DNA of 53,120 bases, from positions 1-53,120 of the IMG/VR virus record IMGVR_UViG_3300035633_000512, one strand, 5' to 3'. The position numbers were made by a program, and so were the translations under genes. Under the pieces are notes generated by a model, which worked only from the letters and a program-made list of their open reading frames with translations, searched no databases and was not told where the DNA came from. The stretch comes from a virus (lineage: Duplodnaviria > Caudoviricetes). Shown here piece by piece: positions 3,655-52,075 of this stretch (positions are counted from its first letter, which is position 1; every line of letters begins with the position of its first letter).

Positions 3655-3656
3655 GC

Positions 3657-3917
3657 CCGGAATCCCGGAATCCCAAAACCGATTCCGGGGGGATTCCGGC
3701 GAGGCGAATCTTCAATGATTTCATGTCTCTAACTATCATTTCCCGGAATCCCGGAATCTTTTGGACCACAAAGGGTAGGGGTGGAAAACTTCTCTCTTCC
3801 TCCGACGAGAGTTCACCGCCCTAAGGGGTTTATGGGCAAAAGATTCCGGTTCCGGCATTTTGCCCCTAACTACTCGTTAATCTTGGCGATCACGTCACCG
3901 GAATCATCCCCGGAATC
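3657..3917. repeat. Cluster of CCGGAATC octamers in both orientations; candidate replication origin
   Basis: CCGGAATC at 3657, 3665, 3743, 3751, 3898, 3910; reverse complement GATTCCGG at 3681, 3692, 3842; relatively AT-rich spacers. Confidence 0.75.
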
Positions 3918-6648: not shown

Positions 6649-6664
6649 TGCAATCCTGGTGCCG
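6649..6664 (-). promoter_or_regulatory. sigma54-type -24/-12 promoter for the primase/helicase gene
   Basis: Minus strand CGGCACCaggaTTGCA (GG-N10-GC), 17 nt before ATG 6632. Confidence 0.6.
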
Positions 6665-6695
6665 CTCCGAGCTGCCACACGGACAATTCCCGGCA

Positions 6696-6711
6696 TGGCA
6701 CGTCGCATGCA
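6696..6711 (+). promoter_or_regulatory. sigma54-type -24/-12 promoter
   Basis: TGGCACGtcgcATGCA; an in-frame GTG at 6725 lies 14 nt after the GC. Confidence 0.65.
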
Positions 6712-6724
6712 GGAAAACGGGCAC

Positions 6725-9722: not shown

Positions 9723-10682
9723 ATGCCTCACCCGGCCTTGAAAGTCCTCACCACTGAAGGCCACGGAGCTTCCAAGCGAGGAAGTCACCAGTTGGCATCC
9801 GTCTTCCAGTGCCCCCGCAAGTGGTACCTCCGGTACCGCAAGGGCGTCCGGGAGAACGAAGACAAGGAGTTCCGGATGGGCGGCACCCTTGGTCATCTCG
9901 CCATCGCCCACCGCTACGCCGAGCGCATCATCGAGCAGGGCATCTGGCCCGAGCCTACGTGGTGGGATGGGCGCTCCATCGACGACGCCTTGGAGACCGT
10001 CGGTGAGGGCTGGCCGCAGCTCATCCCGGTCGCTCGCGAGCTGTATGACGCCTACCCCGCGCACTGGTGGCACGGCTCCATCGCCGAACCCTGGGAGCCC
10101 GTCGCCGTCGAGGAGCAGTTCTACGCTCGCCTTGGCGACTTGGCACCCTTGCCCGACGGAGAGGACGACCCGTGGGCCGACGAGATCGTCACCTGCGGTA
10201 CCGACCTCGTCGTCCGTAACACCATCACCGACATGATCTGGATCCCGGACCACAAGTCGAAGGGCTTCGACCCGTTCGGCCGGTCCTCCACGCCGCGCAT
10301 GGAGCCCTGGCGCCGCGACGGCGAGCAGTACACGATCCATTGGCAGGCGCTCGTCAACCTGCTCATCGTCCGACGCGCCTTCCCTGACAAGGTGGTGGGC
10401 GGCTTCATCATTAATCGCTTCACCCGCAAGAAGCCCTTCATGTTCGACCGCTACACGCTCCACGTTTCTCCGCGCGTGTACGCCGAGGCGCCCGCGCAGA
10501 TCCGCCGCGCTGTCATGGAAGAGGCGCGCATTGATGGCATGGTCGCTGCAGGTGAACGTCCCGAACCCAACTACTGGGCTTGCCATGGCAAGTACGGTTG
10601 CTGTGACTACATCGAATTGTGCAACGCAGACGACGAAGAACAGATGAACCGAATCTTGTCGGCCAAGTTCATGGTTGTGTGA
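9723..10682 (+). CDS. PD-(D/E)XK exonuclease (RecB/Cas4-like, Cys cluster)
   Basis: FQCPRKWYLRY, GTLGH, VAVEEQF, GTDLV, IPDHKS, C-terminal C-x5-CCDY-x3-C. Confidence 0.8.
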   Translation: MPHPALKVLTTEGHGASKRGSHQLASVFQCPRKWYLRYRKGVRENEDKEFRMGGTLGHLAIAHRYAERIIEQGIWPEPTWWDGRSIDDALETVGEGWPQLIPVARELYDAYPAHWWHGSIAEPWEPVAVEEQFYARLGDLAPLPDGEDDPWADEIVTCGTDLVVRNTITDMIWIPDHKSKGFDPFGRSSTPRMEPWRRDGEQYTIHWQALVNLLIVRRAFPDKVVGGFIINRFTRKKPFMFDRYTLHVSPRVYAEAPAQIRRAVMEEARIDGMVAAGERPEPNYWACHGKYGCCDYIELCNADDEEQMNRILSAKFMVV

Positions 10683-10703: not shown

Positions 10704-11543
10704 TTGGCTGACATCAATTCATTCATTCTGTACGGGCACGCGGGGGTCGGTAAGACGACCATCGCAGCCCGTGTCATGCCGGACGCCCTGTGGGTCGTCA
10801 CCCGGGAATCCAACCTGGGTGGCTACAACACCTGGGTCCGGGGAGAGGGCGCAGCGGAAGCCGCGTCCTTGGGTCTGCGCCAGATCATGTCTCGCAAGGA
10901 GTGCGAGAAGAGAGGCGTCGACCCGAACACCTGCAACACGGCCGTGGTGCAGGTCCCGCGGATGCTTCCGCAGACTGACAACAAGGGCAACGTGTCCATT
11001 CAAAAGACGGACGTCCGCGAGTTCATTCGAACCATCGTGGGCGAGTACGTCGTGAAGGCACAGAAGGGCGAGACCAAAGCCCGCGGCATCGTCTTCGACG
11101 AGTTGTCGATTCTTGCCAAGTGGGTCTACGACATGATCAAGGAGCGTGAGCGAAACGGCTTCGAGGTCATCGCGCAGATCAAGGAGTGGGTCGGAGAAAT
11201 GTGCGAGATCAGCACGATGTCCGGCCTTCCGATGGCCTTCTTGTGTCACTCCAAGGACACCACCTTCTGGGAGGACGGCCCCAAGAAGGGCAAGGTCAAG
11301 TACAAGGGCGGACCAGCTATGCCTGTTGGCACAATGATTGCTGATGTCTGCGCGTTGCCAGACGCGGTCCTCCAAGTGGACCTCGAAGAGACTGGCATGG
11401 ACTCGTCGACACGAGTCATCCGAACCGAAGCGCATCCCCGTTGGGAGCGCAAATGTCGAGTGTGGGGTGTCGAACCCACGATCGAACCTGACCTTCGACC
11501 GTTGCTGACGAAGGCTGGGTGGAACTTCCAAACAGCAGCGTAA
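10704..11543 (+). CDS. Sak4-like AAA ATPase / single-strand annealing protein
   Basis: LYGHAGVGKTT, IVFDELS, FLCHSK; lies between the exonuclease and SSB-like genes; AGGAG RBS and TTG start. Confidence 0.7.
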   Translation: MADINSFILYGHAGVGKTTIAARVMPDALWVVTRESNLGGYNTWVRGEGAAEAASLGLRQIMSRKECEKRGVDPNTCNTAVVQVPRMLPQTDNKGNVSIQKTDVREFIRTIVGEYVVKAQKGETKARGIVFDELSILAKWVYDMIKERERNGFEVIAQIKEWVGEMCEISTMSGLPMAFLCHSKDTTFWEDGPKKGKVKYKGGPAMPVGTMIADVCALPDAVLQVDLEETGMDSSTRVIRTEAHPRWERKCRVWGVEPTIEPDLRPLLTKAGWNFQTAA

Positions 11544-36950: not shown

Positions 36951-37734
36951 GGACAAGCTGACCCGCCTCATTCAGAAGGCCATGAACACCAAGCAGGCCG
37001 AGACTGCCTGGGACCTCGGGGACATCGACCTCGAACGGCGCCCGCTCGACCAGCGTGAGCACCCTGGCGCGGCAGCCATCCTCCTCGTGCGCGAGGCCAT
37101 GGCGCAGTTCGAGATCCCGTCCGAGGTGAGCCTCACCTACAAGGGCATGCGTCGCGCGTCGGGTCACGGGCAGCATCACCTGACCGACGGGCTCATTGAG
37201 GTCAACGCCGACTTCCGCTCCATCTCGGGCACCAAGCACCACGTCAACGTGCCGGTCATCGTGCACGGGGGCTACATGGTCTTCCCAGAAGTCTTTCAGC
37301 ACGAGGGTCAGACGCACGTCATGGCGCAGTCGGCCTTCGACGAAATCCTGAAGCGCGGCAACGTCTACCAGAAGATGCAGGACCGCAAGAATATGTACTC
37401 GCCGCACTTGGAGGAGCGCTCTTCGCCCGCGCCCGTCCCGGCGGTGGGCAACGGCCTGTTCGGCGTTCACGCGAGCAGCAAGCAGGCCGACCACACGCCT
37501 CACGGGCTCGACCCCGCCGAGCGTGACCACTCGCGGCAGCATCAGCCTGGTGACAAGGTCAAGCTCTCCAACGAAATCCAGGCACGCCTTCGTGGCGGTT
37601 CCCGCATCGTGTACACCGCAGGTACCGAGGTGACCGTCATTCGGGACATGGCCGGCGACGGGTACACGTACTACTGCGAGTTCCCTGACCGTCGCAGGGC
37701 GCCAGTCCACTATGCTGACCTCGCAGACGCCTGA
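36940..37734 (+). CDS. Hypothetical head-module protein with a C-terminal SH3-like domain
   Basis: Two KQA motifs; QPGDKVKL...GTEVTVI...YYCEF. Confidence 0.72.
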   Translation: MSRKDKLTRLIQKAMNTKQAETAWDLGDIDLERRPLDQREHPGAAAILLVREAMAQFEIPSEVSLTYKGMRRASGHGQHHLTDGLIEVNADFRSISGTKHHVNVPVIVHGGYMVFPEVFQHEGQTHVMAQSAFDEILKRGNVYQKMQDRKNMYSPHLEERSSPAPVPAVGNGLFGVHASSKQADHTPHGLDPAERDHSRQHQPGDKVKLSNEIQARLRGGSRIVYTAGTEVTVIRDMAGDGYTYYCEFPDRRRAPVHYADLADA

Positions 37735-39784
37735 GCCTGCACTCGACGGCTTCCTCGACGACTTCCAGGCTGCGGTCCAGGAAGCGGTCGACGACCGTCC
37801 AGAGACCTCGGGTCGCCTGGACGAAGAGCGTCAGTACCTCGTTACGCCCGCGCCCAACGCCATCCGATGGTGCGTCGAACCGCAGTTCGGCAACATGCCG
37901 TCGCTGTACGAGTACACGCGCTCGTACCAAGTCGTGCGGGACGTGTTCCAGCTGCGCTGCCCGATCTGCAACCCCCGCGGCGACACCGACTGCTGGGGCA
38001 GGACGCGCACTCAGCTCGACGCCGAGTGGCTGCTCGAATGGTCGCCCAAGCACGAAGAGGACGTGTGCCCGAAGTGCGGGACCACGCGCTCCGAGTTCGA
38101 GGAAGACGGCCTCCTGAAGCGCATCAACGCGCTCCACCTCGTCTGTGGACAGCGTTCAGGCAAGTCAGTCGTCGCGGCCATGATCGGCACCTACGTCGAG
38201 CACCGCATCCTGACCATTGCGCACTCGACCCCAGGTGGGTTCAACGCGCATCTCGGTCTGACCATCAAGGACCCTTCCGAGATCACCTTCCTCGCCTCGA
38301 ACGAGATTCAGGGACAGGACACCATCTGGGCGAAGTACCGCGCCATGCGCGCAGACGCGCCCTGGTTCAAGCGCTACGTCTCGTGGGTCAAGGACCAGGA
38401 GGCGAAGCAGAACACGCCGCCGGGCATGGAGCGTTGGGTCTACTCCGAGGCCAACCGGAAGATCATCAACGAGCATCCGGACTGCAAGTTCATCATCAAC
38501 TCGCTGAACTCGAACTCGGCGGGTCTCCGTGGTCGAACCCGCATCTTCGGAGGCCTCGACGAGGTGTCGCACATGCAGGGCGGCGAGTCGCGATTTTCAG
38601 GGGATGAGATCTTCCGCTCGATCGACAACTCCCTGCAGACGGTCCGCTCGCGTACGAAGCTCGTGGGCTCGCTTCCGTGGCTGGGACTGCTCGCATCGGT
38701 CACCAGTCCGCTGTCCAAGGACGACAAGGGCATGCGCCTTCTGAAGGACCCGCCGGACAGCATGCTCACGTACCATCTGCCGACGTGGCAGTTCAACCCG
38801 TTCGAGCCACGGGAGAACTTCGACGCCCTCTACCAGAAGGACCCCGTCGGCACCGAGCGAGACTTTGGCGCGAACCCGCCGCTGGCTGCGCACCCTCTCA
38901 TCCACGACGTGGGCCGCTTCCATGACCTGGTGACTGACGCGACGCTGGAACCCGCCTGTCAGTTCGAGACGCCGATGTTCATGGAGTCCGGCCACAGCTA
39001 CATCGGGATCAAGGTCAAGGACCTGCGCCCTCGGTACAAGCGCTCGCACTTCATTGCGCTCGACGCTGGCAAGAACTTCGACGCCTTCTCGGGCGCGTGC
39101 GCGCACGGTGAGGTGTACGTGGACCCGGACTCGGGCGTTCAGCGCACGAAGACCGTCCTCGACTGGGTCTTTCGGATCCTGCCGCAGCTCGGCACTGAGG
39201 TGTACTACGACGACATCTACGGGGTCATCAAAGGGCTCATGCAGTCCATGCCGATTCAGCGCGTCGAGTTCGACCGCTGGAACTCGACTCAGCTCATTCA
39301 GCAGATCCGCCGCGCTGGCATCGAGGCGGAGCAGAAGTCTCTGAAGAACGAGGACTGGATCCGCTTCCGACAGGACGCCTACGCCGGCACCATCGCCATG
39401 TTCCCGCCCGCAGCCGGCGAATGGGACAAGCCCTCGGGTGAGTACATCGTCGACCCTCCGGACATGCACCCGCACACCTGCGCCCTGTACGAGTTGGAGG
39501 GTTTGGAAGAAGACCCTGAGACCCAGAAGGTGTACAACCCTCGTAAGGGCCTCGAACGCGGCTTCAACTCGAACGACACGGCCCAGGTCGTGGTGCACGT
39601 GCACAAGATGGTTCAGGACGTTGGCTACACCGAGCGCATGAACGACCGCTCCCGCGACGCGCGACGCAAGCGTGCGCAGGCGGGCGGACAGGACTTCATG
39701 CGCCAGGGGATGGGCGGTGTCTACAACATGTCTCGACTGGGCGGCGGAGGTCCGCGCAATTGGGGCTCCGGACGAGGCTGGTAA
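37712..39784 (+). CDS. terL: Terminase large subunit
   Basis: Walker A CGQRSGKS, LRGRT, Walker B GLDEVSH, VTSP, PTWQFNP, RDFGA; nuclease ALDAGKNFDAF, FDRWNS, NDTAQ. Confidence 0.88.
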   Translation: MLTSQTPEPALDGFLDDFQAAVQEAVDDRPETSGRLDEERQYLVTPAPNAIRWCVEPQFGNMPSLYEYTRSYQVVRDVFQLRCPICNPRGDTDCWGRTRTQLDAEWLLEWSPKHEEDVCPKCGTTRSEFEEDGLLKRINALHLVCGQRSGKSVVAAMIGTYVEHRILTIAHSTPGGFNAHLGLTIKDPSEITFLASNEIQGQDTIWAKYRAMRADAPWFKRYVSWVKDQEAKQNTPPGMERWVYSEANRKIINEHPDCKFIINSLNSNSAGLRGRTRIFGGLDEVSHMQGGESRFSGDEIFRSIDNSLQTVRSRTKLVGSLPWLGLLASVTSPLSKDDKGMRLLKDPPDSMLTYHLPTWQFNPFEPRENFDALYQKDPVGTERDFGANPPLAAHPLIHDVGRFHDLVTDATLEPACQFETPMFMESGHSYIGIKVKDLRPRYKRSHFIALDAGKNFDAFSGACAHGEVYVDPDSGVQRTKTVLDWVFRILPQLGTEVYYDDIYGVIKGLMQSMPIQRVEFDRWNSTQLIQQIRRAGIEAEQKSLKNEDWIRFRQDAYAGTIAMFPPAAGEWDKPSGEYIVDPPDMHPHTCALYELEGLEEDPETQKVYNPRKGLERGFNSNDTAQVVVHVHKMVQDVGYTERMNDRSRDARRKRAQAGGQDFMRQGMGGVYNMSRLGGGGPRNWGSGRGW

Positions 39785-39785
39785 C

Positions 39786-42700
39786 ATGCAGGTTCTCTAC
39801 AAGGGACAGGTCGTCGGCAAGGTTGACGAGAACGAGGTGGGCTTTTGGTGGACGCCTCTGCACGAGGACGTCTTGCCCACGACAGGTCTGAAGGAGACGC
39901 TCGAAGAGGCCGTCGCCGAGATCGCCTACCGCTGTGAACTCCCCGCCGACCAACTCCAGGTGACCGCTGCCGTCAACGTGGTCGACGAGGCGCCCGAGTC
40001 TCATGACGACGCCTTCTGGGACACGAAGCAGCCCGGGCAGCTCGACACGCAGGACACCAACTTCCCCGCAGGCGAGATCAATCAGGACCTGTCCGGCGCC
40101 GACCCCTGGGCCAACCGACGTCAGCGTCAGGGCCAACTGCATCGGGCAGGCGCGCATCCCAGCTCGCATCCGCGGTTCAACCGGGAGGGCGATGAGCAGG
40201 GCAGCAGCGGCTCGCATCCGCACGCGGACGCGGCTCCGGTTTGGGACCCGAACGCTCAGGTCACGTGGAAGACCGACCAGGACTACCAGAACATCGCGCA
40301 GCAGTATGGACAGGTGACGCCCGGCGAGCACTCGAACCTGAAGTTCTACGACTACACACCCCACACTCAGTCGATTGATGACCTGGCCAAGGCGAAGGGC
40401 TACGACGTCTACCTCGCCGGTGGGAAGTACGAAAAGCCTGACCTGGAGCACCGCAACTACAACACAGGCCACCTGATGGTCTATGACCCTACGCCCGGCT
40501 CCGGGGGGACCTTCGACGACGAGCAGTACACGAAGGCCTGGCGGACCATTCACGAGCTGGCGCACGCTCAGGTCTACGAAGGTCTGAACGAGATGTACGG
40601 CGAGGGCCGCCGCATCGGCAAGCTCGGCTGGCAGCGTTCGCCCCGCGAAGCGAAGCGTGCCGTGCACTGGGAGTGGCTCGCCGCCCACCGTCAGCGTGAG
40701 CTGGCCGAAGAGTACCTCGACTACCACGTGCCGGACGAAGTGTTCAACATGGAACTCAACACCGTCATGCATGACGCCGTGCACCGTGCCATCACAGGCA
40801 AGTTCACGAACCCCGACCTCGAAGGCTTCGTGCCGTCCAAGGAGAAGGTCCCGTTGGAGGTCGCTCTTGGCATGATCGACGAGGCCGCGCGCAAGCTCGG
40901 GCTGCCTGACGATGAGTCGGTGCTCACACCTGAGCAGAAGAAGGAGCTGCGCCAGCGCAAGGCAGCAGGCGCGGACGACGAAACCTGGGCGCGCATTCAA
41001 CAGCTCGAAGAGCAGGCACTGGCCGCCTACGAGCGCGGCGACTTCCAGACCGCCGAGAACCTCGACGCCGAGTACGCAGACTTGGTCGAGTCGCTTGGGC
41101 AGGCCGACGCGGAGGACGAGTCGGTCTATGACCTCGACCCGTTCCACCAGGCTCTGTGGGAGATGGCCGAAGCCTACGAAGCGTTCCAGACGCGTGAACT
41201 CTACAACGGCACGGTCTTGACCAAGGATGCCCTGATTGAGCGTTTGGGTGGGATCGTCTTCGAACTCACGGGCAACCGCTTCCCGGCAGCGCAGCTGCTT
41301 GACGCCGCGCAGGACGCAGCCGCTCGCATGTCGGAGCTGCGCGGGCGTGGACGCAAGTCGGCCACGCAGCGCTGGTACCACGGCAGTGATGCGCCTCTGG
41401 ACGGCTTTGATGCGCCGCGACCGAAGTTCTCGGGAGCTGTGTTCTTGTCGCCCACACCCTCATTCGCTGCACTGCACGGCCCGCATGTCTACGAGGCGTT
41501 CCCTCGTGTCTCGACGATCTTTGAAGGGGCTGACCTGGTGCGCCCGGACGCCAGGTATTGGCCGCCTGATGAGTCTGAGCTGACTCCACTGGGGCGCGCT
41601 CTTCTTGAACTGGTGGACGGCGACCGCGAGGTGGTCGCGTGGGCGGTGCGAGAGGGGTACGACATCATCGAAGACGCGCGGGTCGTCGACCTACTGAAGC
41701 GTTGGGGCTACGACGCTGCGTATGTTCAGGGCGACGGGCCGCGCAACTTGATGGTTTTCGACCCACACCACGTTGAACTGAGTCAGCGCAAGTCGGCCAC
41801 ACCGTCAGGGCATGAGCTAGGTGACCTCACAGAAGACCCAGAGCTGGACAACCACACGCGTCAGCCGACACCGCGCAAGCTCGATGACGCGTTCCGCTGG
41901 AACGAGTCCTACTCGTCCGAGAACCAGTTCGAGGACCCGAACCTGAAGCTCGGTCAGCGTGCGGACGAGGACGACTACTCCTGGCTGGATGACGACGAAG
42001 ACGAGGGCTTCGACTGGGAGAACGTCTTCCCAGAGCCCGAAGAGGGCCAGGGACTGGCGGACGTCCTGGAACCGCTCCCTGACCCGGAGCCCGAGTCGCC
42101 AGACCTTCTCGACAGGGTACGCTTCGAGTTCGAAGGGCCGCGCGAGTGGCCTGAGAAGATCAACCCGCGTGACCCGCCTGAGGTGGAGATCCGACCGATG
42201 GTCGACAACCGAAGCCTCGGCTATCTGGTCCTCATGCTCTTGCGAGACGCTGAAGGGCGTCCCTTCGCACGGGTCACCGGTGCGAACATCGCACATGGAC
42301 TCCGCGGCTATGGCCTCGGCAAGCAGATGTATCGCGTCGCTCTCGACTGGGTGCGTGACCAGAACGCATGGATGGAGTCGGACACGGCCGTTTCGGAAGC
42401 GGCTCGTCGCGTCTGGCGCTCGTTGATGCAAGACGCTTTGGTCTCAAAGCGCTTCGCCCCAGGTCGTAACGTCGTCATCCACGAAGACCAAAGCGGCGAA
42501 GATTTCCCCTGGAGCTACGGACGCGACTGGGCACCTGAGCTGCACCAGCAGTACCGAAGCGCTCAGCGAGACCGCATGCCGGTGGCGTGTGTCGACCTCG
42601 ACGGCACCATTCTCGAAGACCCCGACTACGACATCACCGAGCCGTCGGGTCAGCCTGGGCTCGGCGAACCCAAGCGTGGCGCAGCTAGCGCTCTGCAGTC

Positions 42701-44834
42701 GCTCAAAGGGCTCGGCTGGACGCTCATCATCCACACTGCCCGCTTCTCGAAAGCACGCACGCCTGCGCAAGCCGAGCAGATGCGCGACGAGATCGAGGAC
42801 CACCTGCAGCGCGCGAATGTTCCCTTCGACGACGTAGCGACGGGCCCGAAGCCCATCGCGGACTACTACATCGACGATAAGGCCGTCGCCTTCAACGGCG
42901 ATTGGTGGGCAACGACCAAGCGCCTCACCGTCCAAGGACAGACGTCTGGGTACGCCTACCACACGACGCCTCATCAGAACCTCGACGACATCGCCCGAGA
43001 GGGATTGATGCCTTACGCACCTGATTACGGGACCGACCAAGAGGCTTGGCCTGACGGCGGCGAGGAAGACCGTATCTACTTCAGCCCAACAGAGCAGGGC
43101 ACTGAGCCCTTTCAACACTCGTCAGGACAACCAATCCTCCGCGTCCCGATGAGTGCCATCTCGGGACGGGAACGCTATACGGGAGACATGTACGCGCGTC
43201 ATGCCATCCCGCCGTCGGTCATCGAGGTGAGGACCGAAGACGGCTACGTGCCCATCCAGTCGTTTGTCCGTCAGGCCTACCTGAAGCCGGACAAGGAGCC
43301 GGGCGCCTCGCTCGTCGTAGTCGTGCCTGTGCCTATGGACTGGCCTGAGGTCAAGGACAACGGCCCCGCGCACCTGACCCTCGCTTACATGAAGGGGCCG
43401 CACAGCGAAGACGACATCGACCTCGCGCACTCGCTGGTACGTGAGGTTGCAGACAACCATGCGCCCTTCGACCTGGAGTTCGAGCCGGGTGTGGCGTGGT
43501 TCGAAAACGACAAGGGCGAGTCGATCGCACACAAGCGGCCTGAGGCTGGGCTTGACCAACTCACCGCGATGGCCAACGAACTGGTCGCTCTTTTGGTCGA
43601 GCACGGGTTCGAGGTCGGTCACGCTGACGAGCCGTTCAAAGCGCATGCGACCCTGAAGTACTGCGACGGGCGTAACTATGACGGCCCGGTTCCTGAGGGT
43701 GGCTTCCGCGTGGACCACATCAACCTCTGGGGTGCGAACGAGGAAGGCTACGAGCTGCCCCTCCGCAGAGGACGTACCGCCGCCGCGCTGCAGTCGCCAC
43801 CTCGCATGGTCGAGGATGTGCTCGAAGGCATTCGCGAAGCCGACGAGCCGGGGACCTTCATCGTGCCGTTCAACCCAGAGGACTGGCGCTACGCCGACGT
43901 GGCTCAGGCGCGCTTTCCGCTGGTCGTCGAAGTCTTCCATCCCAAGGACTTCAAGGCCGGAGACGCGGCGTACGCGCCGCACGACCGCACACTGAAGCTC
44001 CCCATCGACGCGTCCTATCAAACCGTCATCCACGAGATGACGCACTACACGCAGCACCTGCTGTCGGGCCGCGCGTCGGACATTCTGCAGCCTGACACAC
44101 GCGGCTACCCGTCGCCCCGGATTCAGACCGGCAACCCGTTCTACGAGATGGCCGAAGAGCTGAAGGCCGGAGGCGAGCACGCGCTCAGCGACGTCGAGTT
44201 CTGGCCCCGCGTCATGGAGTACGTCAGCATGGTCAAGCACATGGTGTCGCCGGGCGTCTTCGCTCGCGACGTCGGTCTGCGTGGCGTTCCGCGACAGGGC
44301 TTCTTCAAGACGTTGAAGGAGCGCGCACCGGCCAAGTGGCGCCAAGCAGTGAAGTACGCCTACCAGAACCTCTTCGCACAGGAAGAGCTGACGCCCTCCG
44401 AGTGGGCGATGTTCGGCCCGGACCCGAAGCTCCCTGAGCGCGACGCAGCAGGCACCGAGCTGGACCTGACTGGCAACCCGAACGATTGGGGTGACGAGTC
44501 TGGGGCCGGGACCCGCACCGACCTGAGCGTGAATCCGTACGGCGGACGCGACCAGCTCCTGAACCGTGCGGGCTCTGCGAACTGGGACAAGACCGTCCAG
44601 GCCGAGGCGAACCGCATGCTCGGACTGATGCTCGACCGAGGCCAGATGCGCTTCCGCTTCAGTCGAATCTCGAACCAAGGCAAGCGACAGCGCGACGCCG
44701 CCAACTTCCTCGTTCAGCGCGGGCTCGCCCACATCGTGGCGAAGCGCCAGATGAACGCGGACATGATTGTGACCATGGCACCTGGCGCGGGAGTTGCAGC
44801 GCAACCCGCTGAGGCGTACCCTACGGAGGGCTGA
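39786..44834 (+). CDS. Multi-enzyme (polyvalent) protein, ~1682 aa: zincin, ART-like, GNAT, HAD, second ART-like, 2H phosphoesterase, second zincin
   Basis: HELAH (40551); WYHGS...VFLS...GYDA (41370-41780); RGYGLGKQMY (42303); DLDGT...KP...YIDDK (42594-42885); YHTT...IYFS...IPP (42950-43230); HLTL and HATL (43371, 43644); HEMTH (44031). Confidence 0.85.
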   Translation: MQVLYKGQVVGKVDENEVGFWWTPLHEDVLPTTGLKETLEEAVAEIAYRCELPADQLQVTAAVNVVDEAPESHDDAFWDTKQPGQLDTQDTNFPAGEINQDLSGADPWANRRQRQGQLHRAGAHPSSHPRFNREGDEQGSSGSHPHADAAPVWDPNAQVTWKTDQDYQNIAQQYGQVTPGEHSNLKFYDYTPHTQSIDDLAKAKGYDVYLAGGKYEKPDLEHRNYNTGHLMVYDPTPGSGGTFDDEQYTKAWRTIHELAHAQVYEGLNEMYGEGRRIGKLGWQRSPREAKRAVHWEWLAAHRQRELAEEYLDYHVPDEVFNMELNTVMHDAVHRAITGKFTNPDLEGFVPSKEKVPLEVALGMIDEAARKLGLPDDESVLTPEQKKELRQRKAAGADDETWARIQQLEEQALAAYERGDFQTAENLDAEYADLVESLGQADAEDESVYDLDPFHQALWEMAEAYEAFQTRELYNGTVLTKDALIERLGGIVFELTGNRFPAAQLLDAAQDAAARMSELRGRGRKSATQRWYHGSDAPLDGFDAPRPKFSGAVFLSPTPSFAALHGPHVYEAFPRVSTIFEGADLVRPDARYWPPDESELTPLGRALLELVDGDREVVAWAVREGYDIIEDARVVDLLKRWGYDAAYVQGDGPRNLMVFDPHHVELSQRKSATPSGHELGDLTEDPELDNHTRQPTPRKLDDAFRWNESYSSENQFEDPNLKLGQRADEDDYSWLDDDEDEGFDWENVFPEPEEGQGLADVLEPLPDPEPESPDLLDRVRFEFEGPREWPEKINPRDPPEVEIRPMVDNRSLGYLVLMLLRDAEGRPFARVTGANIAHGLRGYGLGKQMYRVALDWVRDQNAWMESDTAVSEAARRVWRSLMQDALVSKRFAPGRNVVIHEDQSGEDFPWSYGRDWAPELHQQYRSAQRDRMPVACVDLDGTILEDPDYDITEPSGQPGLGEPKRGAASALQSLKGLGWTLIIHTARFSKARTPAQAEQMRDEIEDHLQRANVPFDDVATGPKPIADYYIDDKAVAFNGDWWATTKRLTVQGQTSGYAYHTTPHQNLDDIAREGLMPYAPDYGTDQEAWPDGGEEDRIYFSPTEQGTEPFQHSSGQPILRVPMSAISGRERYTGDMYARHAIPPSVIEVRTEDGYVPIQSFVRQAYLKPDKEPGASLVVVVPVPMDWPEVKDNGPAHLTLAYMKGPHSEDDIDLAHSLVREVADNHAPFDLEFEPGVAWFENDKGESIAHKRPEAGLDQLTAMANELVALLVEHGFEVGHADEPFKAHATLKYCDGRNYDGPVPEGGFRVDHINLWGANEEGYELPLRRGRTAAALQSPPRMVEDVLEGIREADEPGTFIVPFNPEDWRYADVAQARFPLVVEVFHPKDFKAGDAAYAPHDRTLKLPIDASYQTVIHEMTHYTQHLLSGRASDILQPDTRGYPSPRIQTGNPFYEMAEELKAGGEHALSDVEFWPRVMEYVSMVKHMVSPGVFARDVGLRGVPRQGFFKTLKERAPAKWRQAVKYAYQNLFAQEELTPSEWAMFGPDPKLPERDAAGTELDLTGNPNDWGDESGAGTRTDLSVNPYGGRDQLLNRAGSANWDKTVQAEANRMLGLMLDRGQMRFRFSRISNQGKRQRDAANFLVQRGLAHIVAKRQMNADMIVTMAPGAGVAAQPAEAYPTEG
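41352..41800 (+). repeat. 14-bp direct repeat CGCAAGTCGGCCAC flanking the ART-like domain
   Basis: Exact copies at 41352-41365 and 41787-41800, both in frame and encoding R-K-S-A-T. Confidence 0.85.
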
Positions 44835-44840
44835 ACCAGC

Positions 44841-47069
44841 ATGAGTGAGATCGAAGTCTTCAGCCCCTACGGCGACCCCCGCAAGCAGGCCAGCCGCCGG
44901 GCGCCTCTGATGTCACCGCGAGGTCCCGACACGCCGCACGGGCTCACAGGACGTCAGGTGGAGCGTATGGCGAGCCGCATGGAGGAGTTTCTCCCCAAGC
45001 TCGGCTCGAAGTACGGCAGCGTCAACGACGTCCTCGGTGACATCCTCCCGGACGGGGCGACGCTGTCACCAGGCGCTGGGGCCGGCTATAGGGAAGCCCT
45101 GCGCCGGCACGCGAACATTCCCGCCGGGGCGGGCGGGTTTGGAGGCTCGGGCGTCGGTGGGCAGGGCGTCTTCCAGACGACGCAGCGTCCGTACCAGCCC
45201 GAGTTCGAGTCGCCCGACCGTCAGCAGTACCCGGTCCATCGGATCCTGGCGAACCGCTACTGGCGCCTGTTCTACAAGCTCGACCACGTCATCGGCAACG
45301 GCATCGACATGTACGGTGACCTGCCCTGGGGCAACTGCGAGTTCAGCGGCGACGGTGTCGACGGCGAGGTGAAGGACATGATGGAGCTGGCCTGGGACGA
45401 GTGTCAGATGCGCTCCATCTTGCCGGCCGCTACCCGTGAGTTCTTCGTCGTGGGCGAAGCGGCGCCACACCTGTTTTGGGACGACACCAAGGGGATCTGG
45501 ACCTACTGCGCACTCCACAACCCGGACCAGCTGGAGGTGGTCGACGCGCCCTTCATCAAGATGGACCCGGTGGTCGAGTTCATCCCGGACCAACGCCTGC
45601 AACAGGTGCTGACCTCGAACCATCAGATGCTCCGGCACGTGCGCGACTCGATGCCGACTGAGCTTCTGACGCGCCTGATGGCCCGACAGAACATCCCCCT
45701 GTCGCCGGTCAACTTCACGTTCCTTCCGCGCAAGCTCCACCCCTACGACACGCGCGGCACCTCGATCTGCAGTCGCATGTGGCGAATCCTCATGTACGAG
45801 GATGCTATCTACAACGCGTCCATCGCGACCGCCCGCCGGCACGCTGGCCCCATCAAGGTGGCCAAGCTCGGTAACCCACAGAACGACTGGATTCCGGGTC
45901 CTGAGCACGAGCGCAAGCTCCTGGAGCTGCTGGCTCAGGCCGAGCTGGACCCGAACGCCTGGCTTGTCTACCACTACGGCATCAACTTCGAGCTGGTCGG
46001 CACGACCGAGCGCGTGATGACCATCGACAAGCACAACGAGACCATCGAGCGCGTGAAGCTGATCGCTTTGGGCATCAGCAAGGCCTTCCTCCACGGGGAA
46101 GTTACATATGCATCGGCCGCTTCTGGGCTCACTGTGTTCCTGTCGCGCCTGAAGGCGCTGCGCCAGTACTTCGAAGCGAAGTGGCTTCTGCCCAAGTTCT
46201 TCTTCCAGATGGCGAAGATCAACAAGTGGGTGAAGCCGACGCAGGCCGAGCTGTCTTCGCGTGTGCGCATCCGCCGTTCGCATCGCGAGCTGTCCGAGGA
46301 CGCTCGCTACATCGTGCCGAAGCTGGAGTGGGACCGCACGCTCGACGCGTCCGTCGACAGCGAGATGCTCGGCGCGCTGGAGGCACTTCAGAACCTCGGC
46401 GTGCAGGTCAGCAAGTCCACGATCATGTCCCTGGTCGGACGCGATTTTGAAGACGAGACAAAGCAGCGCAAGAAGGACTACGAGTTCGAGAAGGAGAACC
46501 TGCCTCCTGAGATGCTCGTGCAGCCGGACGCCGAGGGTGGAGGCGGCGGTCCGTCCATGCTTCCGGGCATGGACCCGGGCGCCTTCGGAGACGTTGCCCC
46601 CGACCTGGAGGGCGGCGAAGGTCCGCCTCCGGACGCCGCCGGCCCTGCCCCCGAGGGCGCAGGCTACAACGCCGACGACGGCTCTACGGGCGCACCGGCC
46701 CCCGACCCCTTCGAAAAGGGCGACCGGGTCAACATCTGGACCAAGTTCGACATCCGCGACCTGATGGACCTCCTCGACGGCGAGGAGCCCGAGGACGAGC
46801 CCTGGCTGGGTGCCTTCAAGGACCCCGACGTCCGCTACGCCCTGAAGGGCGAAAACCGCCAGGAAATCTTCGAGGCGGTGAAGGAGTACCTGGAGCGCGA
46901 GGAGTTCCCGCCAAGCTCGGTCCGGGCGCTTGTTGACATCCTCAAAGAGATGAACGTCATCAAGCGAGGCAGCGCAGCCCGCGCTCCCAGCGAACGTGCG
47001 CGTGAGGCGCAACTCCTTGATATGATTGATGGTTATGGCGGAAATGACCTCTTGACAGGTAGAGGGTAA
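44841..47069 (+). CDS. Portal protein
   Basis: Lies between terL and the protease; RLFYKLD..IGNGID, EFFVVGE, RGTSI, PIKVAKLG, LGISKAFLHGEVTYASA; acidic C-terminal extension. Confidence 0.8.
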   Translation: MSEIEVFSPYGDPRKQASRRAPLMSPRGPDTPHGLTGRQVERMASRMEEFLPKLGSKYGSVNDVLGDILPDGATLSPGAGAGYREALRRHANIPAGAGGFGGSGVGGQGVFQTTQRPYQPEFESPDRQQYPVHRILANRYWRLFYKLDHVIGNGIDMYGDLPWGNCEFSGDGVDGEVKDMMELAWDECQMRSILPAATREFFVVGEAAPHLFWDDTKGIWTYCALHNPDQLEVVDAPFIKMDPVVEFIPDQRLQQVLTSNHQMLRHVRDSMPTELLTRLMARQNIPLSPVNFTFLPRKLHPYDTRGTSICSRMWRILMYEDAIYNASIATARRHAGPIKVAKLGNPQNDWIPGPEHERKLLELLAQAELDPNAWLVYHYGINFELVGTTERVMTIDKHNETIERVKLIALGISKAFLHGEVTYASAASGLTVFLSRLKALRQYFEAKWLLPKFFFQMAKINKWVKPTQAELSSRVRIRRSHRELSEDARYIVPKLEWDRTLDASVDSEMLGALEALQNLGVQVSKSTIMSLVGRDFEDETKQRKKDYEFEKENLPPEMLVQPDAEGGGGGPSMLPGMDPGAFGDVAPDLEGGEGPPPDAAGPAPEGAGYNADDGSTGAPAPDPFEKGDRVNIWTKFDIRDLMDLLDGEEPEDEPWLGAFKDPDVRYALKGENRQEIFEAVKEYLEREEFPPSSVRALVDILKEMNVIKRGSAARAPSERAREAQLLDMIDGYGGNDLLTGRG

Positions 47070-47108: not shown

Positions 47109-47228
47109 ATGGAGCAGTCCGGTTTCAAGAAGCGGGGCACGCAGGAGGGTGAATCCCTCGGCACTGTGCCGTCGCCTGCACCCGCGCCGAAGCCCGACGA
47201 AGACAAGGACAAGGGCAAGGGTAAGTGA
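47109..47228 (+). CDS. 39-aa leader ORF coupled to the protease gene
   Basis: Hand translation MEQSGFKKRGTQEGESLGTVPSPAPAPKPDEDKDKGKGK; GTGA overlap with 47225. Confidence 0.55.
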   Translation: MEQSGFKKRGTQEGESLGTVPSPAPAPKPDEDKDKGKGK

Positions 47229-50080
47229 CGACCGGCTTCCGTAAGACGGCCAAGGTCGAGCACGTTGCCACGCTCGCCTTCGATGCCGACAACGGCGGGC
47301 TCCGCAAGACGGCGCAGCTCGACTCCGCGTCTGACGCCGCCCAGCGCTCCTACTACCTGGACGGCTCGGCCAAGGTCGACGTCCGCGGCATTCTGGAGCG
47401 CCAGGCGCAGAAGTTCGCGATCAGCGCGGACCCCTCAGACTACCTCTTCGAGGTCATTCGCGCCAACACGACCTCCGTCTTCAACGACAACCATGACGGC
47501 TTCGCCCGGGAAGAGCTGCTGCGCTTCGACCCGCGCCTGAAGACCGCGGTCTTTCTCACCTACCGCGAGAAGCCGCACCACGTGAACCACCGCACCGACA
47601 ACCCCAAGCGTGCGCGTGGCGTCATCCTCGACAGTCACTACAACGCCGAGGCCACGCCCCTGGAGAACTGCCCTGGCTGCAACCTTCGCACGGCCGAGCG
47701 CAAGAACCGCGACAAGTCCGGCATTTACTGCCGCCGCTGCGCCACCGTCGTCAACGACGAGTTCGTCGAGATCCTGGTGGCGGTCGACAAGAAGAAGGAC
47801 CCCGCATTCGCCCGCGCCGTCGAGACCGGGCAGCTTCGCTTCGGCTCGATGGGCTGCACCTGCGCCGAGACCGTCTGCAACGTCTGCGGCAACGTCGCCC
47901 GCACCCAGCGCGAGTTCTGCAAGCACATCGCTTCGCACAAGGGCAGCTACTGGGCCAAGAAGGCCGACGAAGACGACTGGTCCAAGATCAACCCCCGCAC
48001 CGCCGAGGCCGAGATGAAGCGCCGCAAGCGCGCCTTCCATCAGCGTGACTTCGTCGCTCTGAAGGCCGAAGACGGCTACGAAGTCCGCAAGGCCGCCGAG
48101 TGGTGCCAGGGCGTCGAGTACGACGAGTACTCGCGCGTCCACATGCCGGCCGACCCGAAGGCCGAGCGCATCGAACTGCTCAACAAGGCAGCTGGCGCAG
48201 GCGACCCGACCCCCGAAGACCTGCGTTCCGAGACCGCCCACCTGGTCGCGGCAGCACGCACAGCAACGCGCGGCCGTCGTCAGAAGGCCGCGGGACAGGA
48301 GAGAGCAGCGATGAAGTTCTACGTTGTGCGCGTCGATGGAGACCCGCTCGACACCTACGCGGCCGAGTCACTCGACATGGCCCTCGAAATGGCCGGACCT
48401 GAAGAGGGCGCCCAAATCGAGGTGGCCGAGGTCGAGGCGGATGACGCCGGCGCCGCTCGTCTGATGCCGAGCGACGAAGACTACCAGCCCCACATGGGTG
48501 CGGACGCCAACCACGAGATGGAAGGCGACGTGACCATCAACATCACCGAGGACCCGGCCACCGGTGAAGAGTCGGTCGAAACGGTCGACGACCCCGCGCC
48601 GGACCCCACGAGCATCGAGGACTTCACGGATGAGGTCCTCAATCCAGAACCAGAAACCCCCGGAAGAGACGAGTTCTCGCCGGAGGAGCTTGGCGTCATG
48701 CCTGCAGGCGCCAGCAAGGAGGCAACAGCAGTGCAGCACACGAGCTACGCCGACTGGTCGGTGCAGGTGACGCCTCAGGGAGTCGCCCAGGTCATCGCTC
48801 CCAGCGGCCCCGCCCTCTTGGTCACCCCCAAGAAGGCACTGAAGGACGACCAGGCCAAGATGGCCTTCGGTCAAGAGATCATGGACCACCTCTGCGACCA
48901 CGGACTGCTCCGTACCGCGGAGAAGTACGAGGCCAACTTCCATGCGAAGTTCGCATCCGTCGTCGACGGCGCGATCGACGACATGAAGGAGTACTCGGAC
49001 AAGGACAGCAAGCCGGACGTCGCCTCCGGAGGCGAGTCGGACATGGCTGGCGAGCACGGTGGCGATCAGCGCGGCATGCACGCAGACGACGTTCGCGACG
49101 AGAACCACACCGACATGGAGCCTGGTTCCCGCGAGCCCAAGGTCGAGATGACCGACCAGAACCGCGCCAGCGACCACGAGCTGGGCAACACCGACGACCG
49201 ACCCGACTCCTCGTCGGAGAACGAAGGCTCGGACATGCGCGAGAAGCGCCCCGAGTTCTCGGTCTCGCAGGACGACGCTCTGCAGAACGCGGTCTTCGAC
49301 CACGCTGAGCGCGTTGCGATGGTCGGCAAGTGGGTCGAAGGGCCCGAAGGCAAGACCGCCAAGGTCGCTTCCTACGCCAAGGAGGCGCAGACCTTCACCC
49401 TCGTCGACAACAAGCTGTCGCCGAGCGAGGTGCAGGCCGGTGACCTCATCAAGCAATGGAAGCAGCTCGACCAGGCGCCCTCCTCGTACGAGGACAACCT
49501 GAAGCGCTGGGCCAAGACGGAGATCGAGAAGGCGCGCAAGGCGGCCGTCTCGGATGTCTTCCGCGTCATCCGCATCGCAGCGCAGCGTTCACACAAAGGC
49601 CTGGAGCGCTCGCCTCTGAAGGAGGCGGTCGCGACCCAGCTGGCGAACCAGAAGGTCGTCGGACACGACGGCGTGTCTCGGGCTCCCCTGGAGTACCAGG
49701 GCATGAGCGACGAGCTGGCCATCCACCTGGTGGAAGCGGCATTCGCCGACGCCGGCGAGCGCGACATCGACACTCTGCTTTCGCGAGCTGCCAAGCTCAT
49801 GAAGCACGACACCAACTTCCTGAAGTCGGCAGAGACCGACCTCAGCAAGACCGCCCACCGCGTGCCGGTGGTCACCGCGGCATCCATGGTCGACGACCTG
49901 GACCGCGAGGCAGAGGTGCTGCGCCGCAGCGCCTCCGCAGGAAATCTCGAACTTGCACCGCAGCCGTCCGAAGACGAGCGCTCCACGCGAGTCGCCGCTC
50001 AGACGAACGGCAACGCGGGCAAGATTCGTTCCGCATTGGGAGGAACGCGGGCAGCAGCCCGCATCCAGCTCCGACAGTAA
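47225..50080 (+). CDS. Prohead maturation protease with Zn ribbons, fused to a long scaffold-like region
   Basis: NDNHDGF...KPHHVNH...RGVILD...VEILVAVD...GSMGC...CNVCG...CKH (His/Ser arrangement like HK97-type proteases); lies upstream of the capsid genes. Confidence 0.75.
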   Translation: MTTGFRKTAKVEHVATLAFDADNGGLRKTAQLDSASDAAQRSYYLDGSAKVDVRGILERQAQKFAISADPSDYLFEVIRANTTSVFNDNHDGFAREELLRFDPRLKTAVFLTYREKPHHVNHRTDNPKRARGVILDSHYNAEATPLENCPGCNLRTAERKNRDKSGIYCRRCATVVNDEFVEILVAVDKKKDPAFARAVETGQLRFGSMGCTCAETVCNVCGNVARTQREFCKHIASHKGSYWAKKADEDDWSKINPRTAEAEMKRRKRAFHQRDFVALKAEDGYEVRKAAEWCQGVEYDEYSRVHMPADPKAERIELLNKAAGAGDPTPEDLRSETAHLVAAARTATRGRRQKAAGQERAAMKFYVVRVDGDPLDTYAAESLDMALEMAGPEEGAQIEVAEVEADDAGAARLMPSDEDYQPHMGADANHEMEGDVTINITEDPATGEESVETVDDPAPDPTSIEDFTDEVLNPEPETPGRDEFSPEELGVMPAGASKEATAVQHTSYADWSVQVTPQGVAQVIAPSGPALLVTPKKALKDDQAKMAFGQEIMDHLCDHGLLRTAEKYEANFHAKFASVVDGAIDDMKEYSDKDSKPDVASGGESDMAGEHGGDQRGMHADDVRDENHTDMEPGSREPKVEMTDQNRASDHELGNTDDRPDSSSENEGSDMREKRPEFSVSQDDALQNAVFDHAERVAMVGKWVEGPEGKTAKVASYAKEAQTFTLVDNKLSPSEVQAGDLIKQWKQLDQAPSSYEDNLKRWAKTEIEKARKAAVSDVFRVIRIAAQRSHKGLERSPLKEAVATQLANQKVVGHDGVSRAPLEYQGMSDELAIHLVEAAFADAGERDIDTLLSRAAKLMKHDTNFLKSAETDLSKTAHRVPVVTAASMVDDLDREAEVLRRSASAGNLELAPQPSEDERSTRVAAQTNGNAGKIRSALGGTRAAARIQLRQ

Positions 50081-50881: not shown

Positions 50882-52075
50882 ATGCCAAAGCGTAACCCCT
50901 ACGAGCAGGTCATGGGCGGAGGCAACAAGCCGTCGTCCGCCCAGGGCATCCAGACCCCGACGAACACGCGACTCGCGTCGCGTGCTCAGGAGGGCATCCA
51001 CGACGAGAGCGGCGCCTACAACCCCCGAGCATTCGGTGGTTGGGACTCGCTCGGACAGGCCGTCCCCTCGGCCCACAACCGTCTCTTCAACAAGGCGGGC
51101 GAGCTGAACGCTTCTTCGAAGGAAGACGCGCTTGTGCAGATCGCTCACTTGCTGCAGAACGTCTCGGGCTCGCCCGTCAGCAAGCAGGCTTTCAGCAAGC
51201 AGGCTGGCCAGAGCGACATGGACCCCAACGAGCGCCGTGAGGTGCTGGCTGCGGCCATGAAGGACCCCGAGGGCTTCACCATCCTGGGTCAGGAGCTTCT
51301 GCTTCCGATCAAGGACCTGGTCGACTACGAGGGCTGGGCCCGCAAGGTCTACCGCGTGCGTCCGCTCGCCCAGGGTGAGCTGTTCCGTATCGCGAAGGAC
51401 GTTCGTTCCACTGCCTGGATCGTCGGTCAGGACGGTCAGGCTCTGGAGAGCCGTCTGTTCGGCAAGTACGTCCAGCCCTCCGAGTTCAAGATCAGCGCGT
51501 ACCCCACGGTCGACATCGAGGACATCTACCAGATGAACTACGACGTCCTGGACCGTGCTCAGGACACCGCGCGCCAGGAGATCGAACTCGAAGAGGACAA
51601 GCGAGCCCAGGCTCTGCTCGACGTCGCGGCCCGCACGGTGAACACCGTGACGACCTTCGCGACGCTCGGCGTCGGTGCCTTCGAGGACGTCCGCTTCCAG
51701 GTGGAGCGGAATCGTCTCGTCGTCTCCAAGTTCCTGATCAACCGTCAGGAGCTGTCGGACATCATCAAGACGATGTCGACCCAGGTCGACCCCGTCACCG
51801 AGCGAGAGCTGATTCTCGCTGGCTACATCGGCTCGTTCCTCAACGCGCAGATCGTCACTGCGGCCGGAACCGGCGTGCAGGAAGTCGTGCCCGCAGGCAC
51901 CTTCTACGCCGTCACCGACCCCGAGTACATGGGCGAGATGGGCGTTCGAGTCGAGCTGTTCTCGGAGCCCTTCAACATGTTCGCGCTGCGTCGCAGCGTG
52001 AAGGGTTGGGCCTTCACCGAGATCATCGGCTTCGCGGTGGTGAACCCCCGCGCAGTCGCCGTCGGCCAGAAGTAA
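50882..52075 (+). CDS. Major capsid protein (HK97 fold inferred)
   Basis: 397 aa, AAGGAG RBS, strongly biased codons, followed by a terminator; DYEGWARK...P.EF.I...EEDKR...GWAFTEIIGFAVVNPRAVA. Confidence 0.85.
   Translation: MPKRNPYEQVMGGGNKPSSAQGIQTPTNTRLASRAQEGIHDESGAYNPRAFGGWDSLGQAVPSAHNRLFNKAGELNASSKEDALVQIAHLLQNVSGSPVSKQAFSKQAGQSDMDPNERREVLAAAMKDPEGFTILGQELLLPIKDLVDYEGWARKVYRVRPLAQGELFRIAKDVRSTAWIVGQDGQALESRLFGKYVQPSEFKISAYPTVDIEDIYQMNYDVLDRAQDTARQEIELEEDKRAQALLDVAARTVNTVTTFATLGVGAFEDVRFQVERNRLVVSKFLINRQELSDIIKTMSTQVDPVTERELILAGYIGSFLNAQIVTAAGTGVQEVVPAGTFYAVTDPEYMGEMGVRVELFSEPFNMFALRRSVKGWAFTEIIGFAVVNPRAVAVGQK

Follow-up and report, generated by a model that had tools for sequence, protein, structure and literature searches.

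Polyvalent proteins of phages and conjugative elements are predicted to be packaged, delivered together with the DNA and processed by peptidases, with built-in zincin peptidases as the predicted processing enzymes, and they show extensive mosaicism (Iyer et al., 2017; PMC5512222). Here, we describe a polyvalent protein encoded on IMGVR_UViG_3300035633_000512, a 53,120-bp contig of an uncultured large phage (Duplodnaviria; Caudoviricetes) that stems from a metagenome assembly, is estimated to cover 32% of the genome and is referred to as the window throughout. The gene resembles described polyvalent-protein genes in its location among virion genes and in encoding a very large chain of ADP-ribosyltransferase (ART), GNAT, phosphoesterase and candidate zincin-like modules. 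It differs from polyvalent proteins as they are portrayed in the passages of Iyer et al. (2017; PMC5512222) drawn on here in that a short junction motif is found at module borders and that the apparent gain of one module, an ART-fold domain, is bracketed by a 14-bp repeat of the motif codons. Judged by its predicted domains, the protein belongs to the known polyvalent class: it combines at least two unrelated enzymatic domains (an ART fold, 2H, HAD-like and GNAT modules and two HExxH modules) and is encoded in a phage late/virion gene setting with the order terminase large subunit (TerL), portal, protease and head protein.

Module exchange at motif-coding DNA is a feature of the polymorphic toxins CdiA and Rhs, whose toxin tips are exchanged at conserved DNA encoding the VENN and PxxxxDPxGL motifs, respectively. 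The locus described here is similar in that a short peptide motif demarcates a variable module and that its coding DNA could provide the homology for an in-frame swap. In CdiA and Rhs, however, a C-terminal tip is replaced and homology extends through a long conserved upstream region, whereas the module in the window is internal and lies between two 14-bp copies of the motif codons. Mosaicism of phage genomes by recombination at short or diverged homologies was reportedly also described by De Paepe and colleagues in 2014. Phage annealing proteins promote mosaicism via such short or diverged homologies (Martinsohn et al., 2008; PMC2327257). An exonuclease and annealing-protein pair is likewise encoded in the window, but the studies of phage mosaicism concern the exchange of genes or gene blocks, while here domains within one frame are affected.

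Integron cassettes offer a further comparison, as they are also modular units that are added singly at a defined short site. An earlier annotation made without database searches (the sequence-only reading) had suggested an integron-like route at the level of protein domains. This suggestion survives only as an analogy: the borders of the unit present neither hairpins nor terminal inverted repeats, no attC-type palindrome was detected there (the four border-strand folds yield z-scores of -0.67 to +0.71 relative to shuffles), and no integrase was seen among the 25 open reading frames (ORFs) scanned against PHROGs, a subset of the ORFs of a contig that covers ~32% of the genome. In addition, the locus lacks the promoterless-gene logic of integrons, and the unit is a domain in a continuous frame. 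Among the papers that a literature search listed, none deals with a junction motif or with motif-codon recombination in polyvalent proteins. Two elements are presented as new: the in-frame gain of a module with exact limits, both of them situated in a junction motif present in duplicate, known from a single event, and, as far as sequence comparison indicates, a junction motif that recurs in the polyvalent proteins of a family from large phages.

A 14-bp repeat and the empty site in relatives

The open frame of the gene spans 39672-44834 and starts with GTG at 39672, while the recorded product P0002 (the query) comprises 1682 aa from the ATG at 39786. The 14-mer CGCAAGTCGGCCAC is found exactly twice in the window, both times on the + strand and once on either side of the ART-fold domain (Table 1), which confirms the exact repeat reported by the sequence-only reading. 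The spacing of 435 bp corresponds to 145 codons and both copies share the reading frame, each reading RKSAT, so that removal of one unit keeps the frame, as had also been proposed. The 15th base differs between the copies (ACG versus ACA, both encoding Thr), the outer flanks are unrelated, and the pair represents the longest direct repeat of the gene.

Among 5.8 billion proteins searched, 20 relatives other than the query itself were identified, and a search with residues 470-800 added two. The 'P.G.ELGD' module downstream of the ART unit is common to five relatives (P0003, P0004, P0005, P0093 and the product of the viral contig L002), and the ART unit is carried by none of the five relatives that share its flanking modules. 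In alignment A1, the resulting gap equals exactly one repeat unit, can be placed at either copy and has its borders inside the repeat. The sequence-only reading had called for alleles that lack precisely the 435-bp unit, and all five flank-sharing relatives lack exactly that segment; the domain is thus not retained throughout the family and the indel borders do not depart from the repeat. Each of the five relatives presents a single [RK]x(S)A[TS]-type motif at the joint (P0003, ...LRGRRQAT-PRGFELGDL; P0004, ...LRDRRSAS-PQGWELGDL; P0005, ...ASRVAT-PRGFELGDL; P0093, ...TNKQAT-PIGHELGDM; L002, ...LRNRRAT-PSGFELGDL).

The closest relative of the query is P0003, with 81% identity over residues 153-577 and 90% identity in the downstream module, as compared to 70-73% for this module in the other relatives. 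Since P0003 is the sister of the query and has no unit, a single gain is favored, and one gain on the query branch would be more parsimonious than at least two exact losses. No paralogue of the ART unit was detected in the five relatives and the nearest homologue found elsewhere, among 1.84 billion representatives searched, is 44% identical, which argues for an origin of the unit outside the family. We infer from these comparisons that the ART unit was added on the query branch once this branch had separated from its nearest known relative, and with the single motif at the empty site of all five relatives, an in-frame cassette gain at the motif is well supported. Given an insertion at this joint, the final 14 bases of the insert are identical to those directly ahead of the insertion point, a pattern expected of a joint made within shared sequence.

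The codon composition sets the unit apart from its surroundings. T-ending codons amount to 0.186 in the unit, as opposed to 0.110 for the gene outside it and to values of 0.090 on the upstream and 0.083 on the downstream side, and only 2.8% of the 145-codon windows of the gene reach the fraction of the unit. With expectations computed analytically, conditioned on the amino acids and on the codon usage of the window, 27 T-ending codons were counted where 15.2 are expected (z 3.28, p ~8e-4), in line with the excess over neighboring DNA claimed by the sequence-only reading. The computation of G+C at third codon positions (GC3) along the gene, which had been recommended there, likewise placed the unit low, with 105 GC3 codons as compared to 120.4 expected (z -3.5).

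The ART-fold domain of the repeat-flanked unit

Homologues of the cassette identified with phmmer match positions ~4-146 of its 149 positions, so that the edges of the domain coincide with those of the cassette. These homologues comprise stand-alone proteins of ~165-200 aa and are also located within proteins of up to 4167 aa. An AlphaFold2 model of the cassette based on 25 sequences is confident except at both ends, with a predicted local distance difference test (pLDDT) value of 91.8 and a predicted template modeling (pTM) score of 0.86. The best match among solved structures obtained with Foldseek is 6KYF (E 1.6e-6, template modeling scores of 0.60/0.64, 17% identity), which corresponds to the anti-CRISPR ADP-ribosyltransferase AcrIF11 (bioRxiv 10.1101/2024.08.26.609590). 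The runners-up are a cyanophage pre-ejectosome chain, PARPs, ParT and MbcT; catalytic domains of PARP, ParT, MbcT and diphtheria toxin match the cassette at E 0.025-0.1. The ART-like label given from sequence alone is therefore upheld by the model and its best structural match. A profile built from the ART alignment retrieved nothing below E 0.27 among PDB sequences.

The Pfam profile PF18760 (ART-PolyVal) matches the cassette through positions 9-129 of its 140, with a score of 16.6 bits (E 0.014). Because this score lies below the gathering cut-off of 31.2 bits, we class the cassette as divergent from ART-PolyVal, to which it is related, rather than as one of its members. A scan of 11 phmmer homologues with the same profile resulted in six above the cut-off, four below it and one without a match. 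At the level of the model, the cassette adopts an ART fold and shows a distant relationship to ART-PolyVal. The cassette has in common with AcrIF11 and ART-PolyVal the ART fold and the strand-1 histidine of a 'YHG[ST]' motif, and differs from ART-PolyVal in its score below the PF18760 cut-off and from AcrIF11 in a sequence identity of only 17%.

The active-site pattern given for ART-PolyVal consists of a histidine in strand 1, a tyrosine in strand 2 and an aspartate in strand 5 (Iyer et al., 2017; PMC5512222). In the model, His10 of the sequence WYHGS is located in the strand formed by residues 8-12 and Tyr47 in the strand of residues 45-51, and Asp137 (within VFDP) and the invariant Glu107 are the candidate catalytic acids (cassette numbering in all cases). 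The cassette is probably an enzyme that is delivered to the host and modifies a host protein. Since the closest fold is that of an anti-CRISPR ADP-ribosyltransferase, the cassette can be considered a candidate anti-defense enzyme.

Junction motif, proposed mechanism and rival explanations

A related short pattern, [RK]-x-A-[ASTQ], is found at numerous further joints between modules in the family. The strings YRSAQRDR, VKRAQTKQ and RRTAQRDR are found ahead of the HAD module, ERDAAG, VRSAAG and SREAAG ahead of the 'NPNDW' segment, and GRTAAAL ahead of the HEMTH module. The 2H module is preceded by VRQA, directly followed by YLKPDK, in the query and by TKQA, directly followed by YIKPDK, in P0004, although the upstream modules differ. 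The ART family itself shows the same tendency: canonical ART-PolyVal domains (P0088, P0077) end in K-SATGN.G.F, within the last positions of the PF18760 profile, and KSAT- or K.A[AS]-like strings flank many homologous ART domains, either before or after. In six relatives, [RK].A[ASTQ] lies at most 12 residues from 27 of the 103 clusters of BLAST breakpoints, compared to 11.2 +/- 3.2 at random, and none of 2000 shuffles reached 27; this count is exploratory, as the pattern was chosen post hoc, homologous joints were counted repeatedly and linkers may favor such residues. More distantly, the member P0007 presents eight [ASN]S[ILV][RH][VIL] strings (e.g. KSASIRV) between its modules, an arrangement reminiscent of a polyprotein whose processing sites are repeated.

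A similar arrangement is seen in Virus Rctr197k, in which the gene in the same slot contains three RTAA copies, in addition to RKAAA, RRVAT and KTAQ, at apparent module starts. This gene, Rctr197k_045 (L004 14055-20582, KX853510.1), is annotated as a misc_feature 'similar to hypothetical protein' and consists of an intact frame of 2175 codons. With its position between terminase and portal, its GNAT- and HAD-like ends and its repeated RTAA joints, Rctr197k_045 is, by sequence comparison, the counterpart of the polyvalent gene in the window.

Repeated short joints plausibly match what would be expected for a processed polyprotein. That the junction motif is a processing site is a tentative reading, to which we give slightly less than even odds; should processing occur there, the protease region encoded at 47225-50080 would be one candidate for the enzyme responsible. 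Motif-like sequences also occur in head proteins: in the major head protein of the window and of L007, TRLAS is found close to the N-terminus and ~13 residues ahead of a conserved block, TRFAN is found in Rctr197k, RRSAS lies near the C-terminus of the protease (47225-50080) and KRGSAA near the C-terminus of the portal protein. Such shared sites are to be viewed as weak leads.

These features can be combined into a proposed sequence of events. The gene encodes unrelated enzyme modules in one chain within the head-assembly block, and its product probably travels in the capsid to be delivered together with the DNA. When the ART domain was gained, the module border would already have borne the junction motif [RK]-x-(S)-A-[TS]. 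If the joint fell inside the motif codons, the insert would be bracketed by two motif copies with the frame kept, and the new module would thereby be flanked by junction motifs. Short-homology recombination or template switching with co-infecting or resident relatives, whose modules are separated by similar motif codons, is the likely process; alternatively, the donor could have carried the motif at both sides of the module. The 14-bp repeat would also permit precise loss of the unit. An exonuclease (phrog_1218, E 1.2e-17, 9723-10682, + strand) and the adjoining gene for a Sak4-like single-strand annealing protein (phrog_124, E 2e-8, 10704-11543, + strand) could form a recombination module, by analogy able to act on short homologies, and may have assisted. 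A helicase-like ORF of 937 aa (6659-9472, + strand) matches HNH endonucleases at residues ~312-355, followed by a helicase match at 399-710, and could be an HNH fusion or insertion. Our confidence that the unit was gained through recombination inside the motif codons is moderate. The sequence-only reading had extended this process to a general route by which modules enter or leave the polyprotein; the part concerning the present event is supported, in that the unit behaves as an in-frame cassette with borders inside the repeat, while no second case of the general route is seen at the DNA level. The model of motif-codon recombination thus rests on one event.

A number of observations weigh against this preferred reading. 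A 14-bp repeat is in itself not rare, with 38 direct-repeat pairs of at least 14 bp in the window, and at least one repeated pentapeptide is present in 74.8% of protein shuffles, with 403 of 2000 shuffles holding one spaced 100-250 aa. On these counts the repeat was given little statistical weight on its own, and what exceeds chance is that both copies bracket exactly the segment absent from all five relatives. Two independent RKSA motifs would have identical codons with p ~0.03, a value raised to ~0.10 by the fact that all four fully repeated codons are preferred ones, so that selection on the RKSA peptide alone could yield the DNA identity. The same figure is in favor of a random, homology-independent insertion into a linker, followed by selection for in-frame products that keep the motif on each side, in which case the identity of the copies would reflect codon bias and not recombination homology. 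This explanation also agrees with the other module borders for which DNA is available, at which no such repeat is seen, and with the other joints, at which the motif is kept as a peptide while its codons vary. The sequence-only reading had expected motif-encoding microhomologies at further variable borders and found no confirmation in this respect: the borders of the unit at 42936-43238 share 3-4 nt, those of an L002-specific insert share 7 nt, which is chance level, and no extended repeat was detected at either. Moreover, the motif copies within the L002 and Rctr197k genes have no long DNA identity, and the longest repeats of these genes, 12-13 nt, sit away from the motif copies. These negatives leave recombination at the motif codons unrefuted, since old joints would lose their identity by synonymous drift. 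Random insertion would require an outcome of 3-10% to place 14 identical bases at exactly both edges of the indel, whereas the tendency of the inserted domain family towards KSAT-type tails would supply ready homology for recombination; we rate random insertion as unlikely, but as the main competitor.

Other objections concern the direction and origin of the change. The empty site of P0003 reads RRQAT and not RKSAT, so that the 14 bases may not have been present at the resident site before the event, and no DNA of an empty-site allele closer than ~57% protein identity was obtained. Low GC3 is also not restricted to the ART unit, as the linker plus GNAT region (z -3.6) and residues 1089-1189, which correspond to the unit at 42936-43238 and have the lowest value of the gene (z -3.8), are low as well; the excess of T-ending codons is strongest in the ART unit. 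It could be argued that the ART unit was ancestral at the joint and that recombination between the motif copies removed it exactly in the ancestry of the five relatives, given that direct repeats favor precise deletion and that the downstream module opens with a sequence (KSATPSGHELGD) similar to the KSATGN.G.F tail of canonical ART-PolyVal, like a leftover tail. With P0003 as the sister of the query, however, at least two independent exact losses would be required, the codon usage of the unit deviates from its flanks and no family member contains a paralogous ART, which makes an ancestral unit improbable. An assembler could have spliced the unit at the shared 14-mer into a chimeric contig, as the sequence originates from a metagenome assembly, but 14 bp is shorter than the usual assembly k-mers, the frame is open across 1682 codons, and the insert forms an entire domain that folds well and has its edges at the repeat; such an artifact is considered very improbable. 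Finally, the direct repeat around the insert resembles a target-site duplication, here of 14 bp, as a transposon, intein, homing cassette or similar small mobile element would leave. The borders show no terminal inverted repeats and fold no more strongly than shuffles, and a single ART-fold domain takes up the entire insert, in which blocks of a transposase, an endonuclease or an intein are lacking, which renders a mobile element extremely improbable; readings as a transposon, intein or integron were rejected on the lack of inverted repeats, hairpins and enzyme domains.

Gene setting and significance

The probable gain of the ART unit concerns a gene with a conserved position, and the coordinates of its modules and neighbors are compiled in Table 1. 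The order TerL, polyvalent gene, portal, protease and major head protein is the same in L002 and Rctr197k. One related viral contig with DNA was found (L002/L003/L007), again with conserved gene order. Searches of other kinds returned less: megablast of the gene against deposited phages gave no match, tblastn matched only the 2H domain in Virus Rctr197k, whole-protein and cassette-alone searches of viral contigs for related loci gave none, and a search with an alignment of the N-terminal module gave none in metagenome contigs and none in genome contigs.

Table 1. Positions in the window of the polyvalent-protein gene, its repeat copies and modules, and the neighboring virion genes
Feature	Position	Strand	Basis
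Polyvalent-protein gene	39786..44834	+	ORF and translation; ATG 39786, 1682 aa; Pfam/PHROG domains
Conserved core with invariant HELxH, candidate zincin peptidase	40209..40916	+	Common to 20 of 20 non-self matches
Repeat copy 1, CGCAAGTCGGCCAC, RKSA(T), residues 561-565	41352..41365	+	Exact match
ART-fold domain, residues 566-705, putative inserted module	41367..41786	+	phmmer, Pfam, AlphaFold2, Foldseek, codon anomaly
Repeat copy 2, same 14 bp, RKSA(T), residues 706-710	41787..41800	+	Exact match
Conserved 'P.G.ELGD...SENQFEDPNLKLG' module	41802..41954	+	Alignment A1; six sequences compared
GNAT acetyltransferase-like module	42201..42419	+	Pfam E 0.013 in query, weak
HAD-like phosphatase module	42549..42899	+	phrog_1238, E 2.6e-15
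Second query-only unit (YAYHTT...YFSPT), family of unknown function	42936..43238	+	phrog_3147; module map
2H phosphoesterase (2'-5' RNA ligase superfamily) module	43359..43670	+	Pfam PF13563, E 2.9e-8, above cut-off
HEMTH metallopeptidase-like module	43779..44441	+	Sequence motif; SprT-like at E 0.077, weak
Terminase large subunit, upstream neighbor	37712..39784	+	phrog_17415, E 6e-57
Portal protein, downstream neighbor	44841..47069	+	phrog_16240, E 1.8e-73
951-aa protein with head-maturation-protease region	47225..50080	+	phrog_18299, E 4.3e-23
Major head protein	50882..52075	+	phrog_2522, E 5.6e-65

Both candidate metallopeptidase modules of the query, with invariant HELxH and with HEMTH, score weakly against known families or structures. 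In the HELxH core, H115, E116 and H119 are invariant (alignment A4) and the AlphaFold2 model reaches a pLDDT of 89.4, but no match at E <= 0.001 was obtained with Foldseek among solved structures. The best row of VIA-align is the antirestriction protein ArdC (6SNA), with Z 4.8, a root-mean-square deviation of 6.4 and 126 aligned residues, and naming the fold of the core after ArdC was dropped because a Z of 4.8 is too weak. The counterpart of the HEMTH module in P0008 shows weak matches to DUF6782 and SprT-like. The GNAT module, weak in the query, is clear in relatives (Pfam E 5.9e-10 in P0005 and 1.6e-8 in L002), and the second query-only unit is missing at the corresponding joint in P0003, P0004 and P0005. 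A conserved segment, '(T)GNPNDW...DLSVNPYGGR.QLL', is located at 44451-44561 (+ strand). In P0004, P0005, P0093 and the L002 product, the segment is part of the final 50 residues; it is found before the HEMTH module in P0003 and after it in the query, so that the order of modules is permuted; the segment may be a targeting or docking signal. Elsewhere in the window, a 17-nt direct repeat, CCCGGAATCCCGGAATC, occurs at 3656-3672 and 3742-3758, 86 bp apart, and is in turn made up as a tandem of CCCGGAAT.

Polyvalent proteins are regarded as the weapons that a phage or plasmid delivers first into the cell. Their domain make-up changes fast, which raises the problem of how modules can be swapped without breaking a frame of 5 kb. 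The locus described here provides a before-and-after pair for this problem, in which a module is present in a single lineage and its borders lie inside a duplicated motif. A bolder extension, which we regard as rather doubtful, is that in a clade of large phages (the contigs of the relatives reach ~160-200 kb) the motif [RK]-x-A-[AST] bounds every module of the capsid-delivered polyvalent protein and serves both as a cut site, at which a head-maturation or built-in peptidase would divide the polyprotein into separate effectors, and as an in-frame recombination joint, at which the phage's own short-homology recombination system would insert, lose and permute modules. Every module would thus bring along a release site of its own, as a protein-domain counterpart of cassette arrays. 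If the motif is indeed both a processing site and a recombination joint, this would explain how polyvalent proteins diversify and would provide a rule for parsing the effectors that are released from them.

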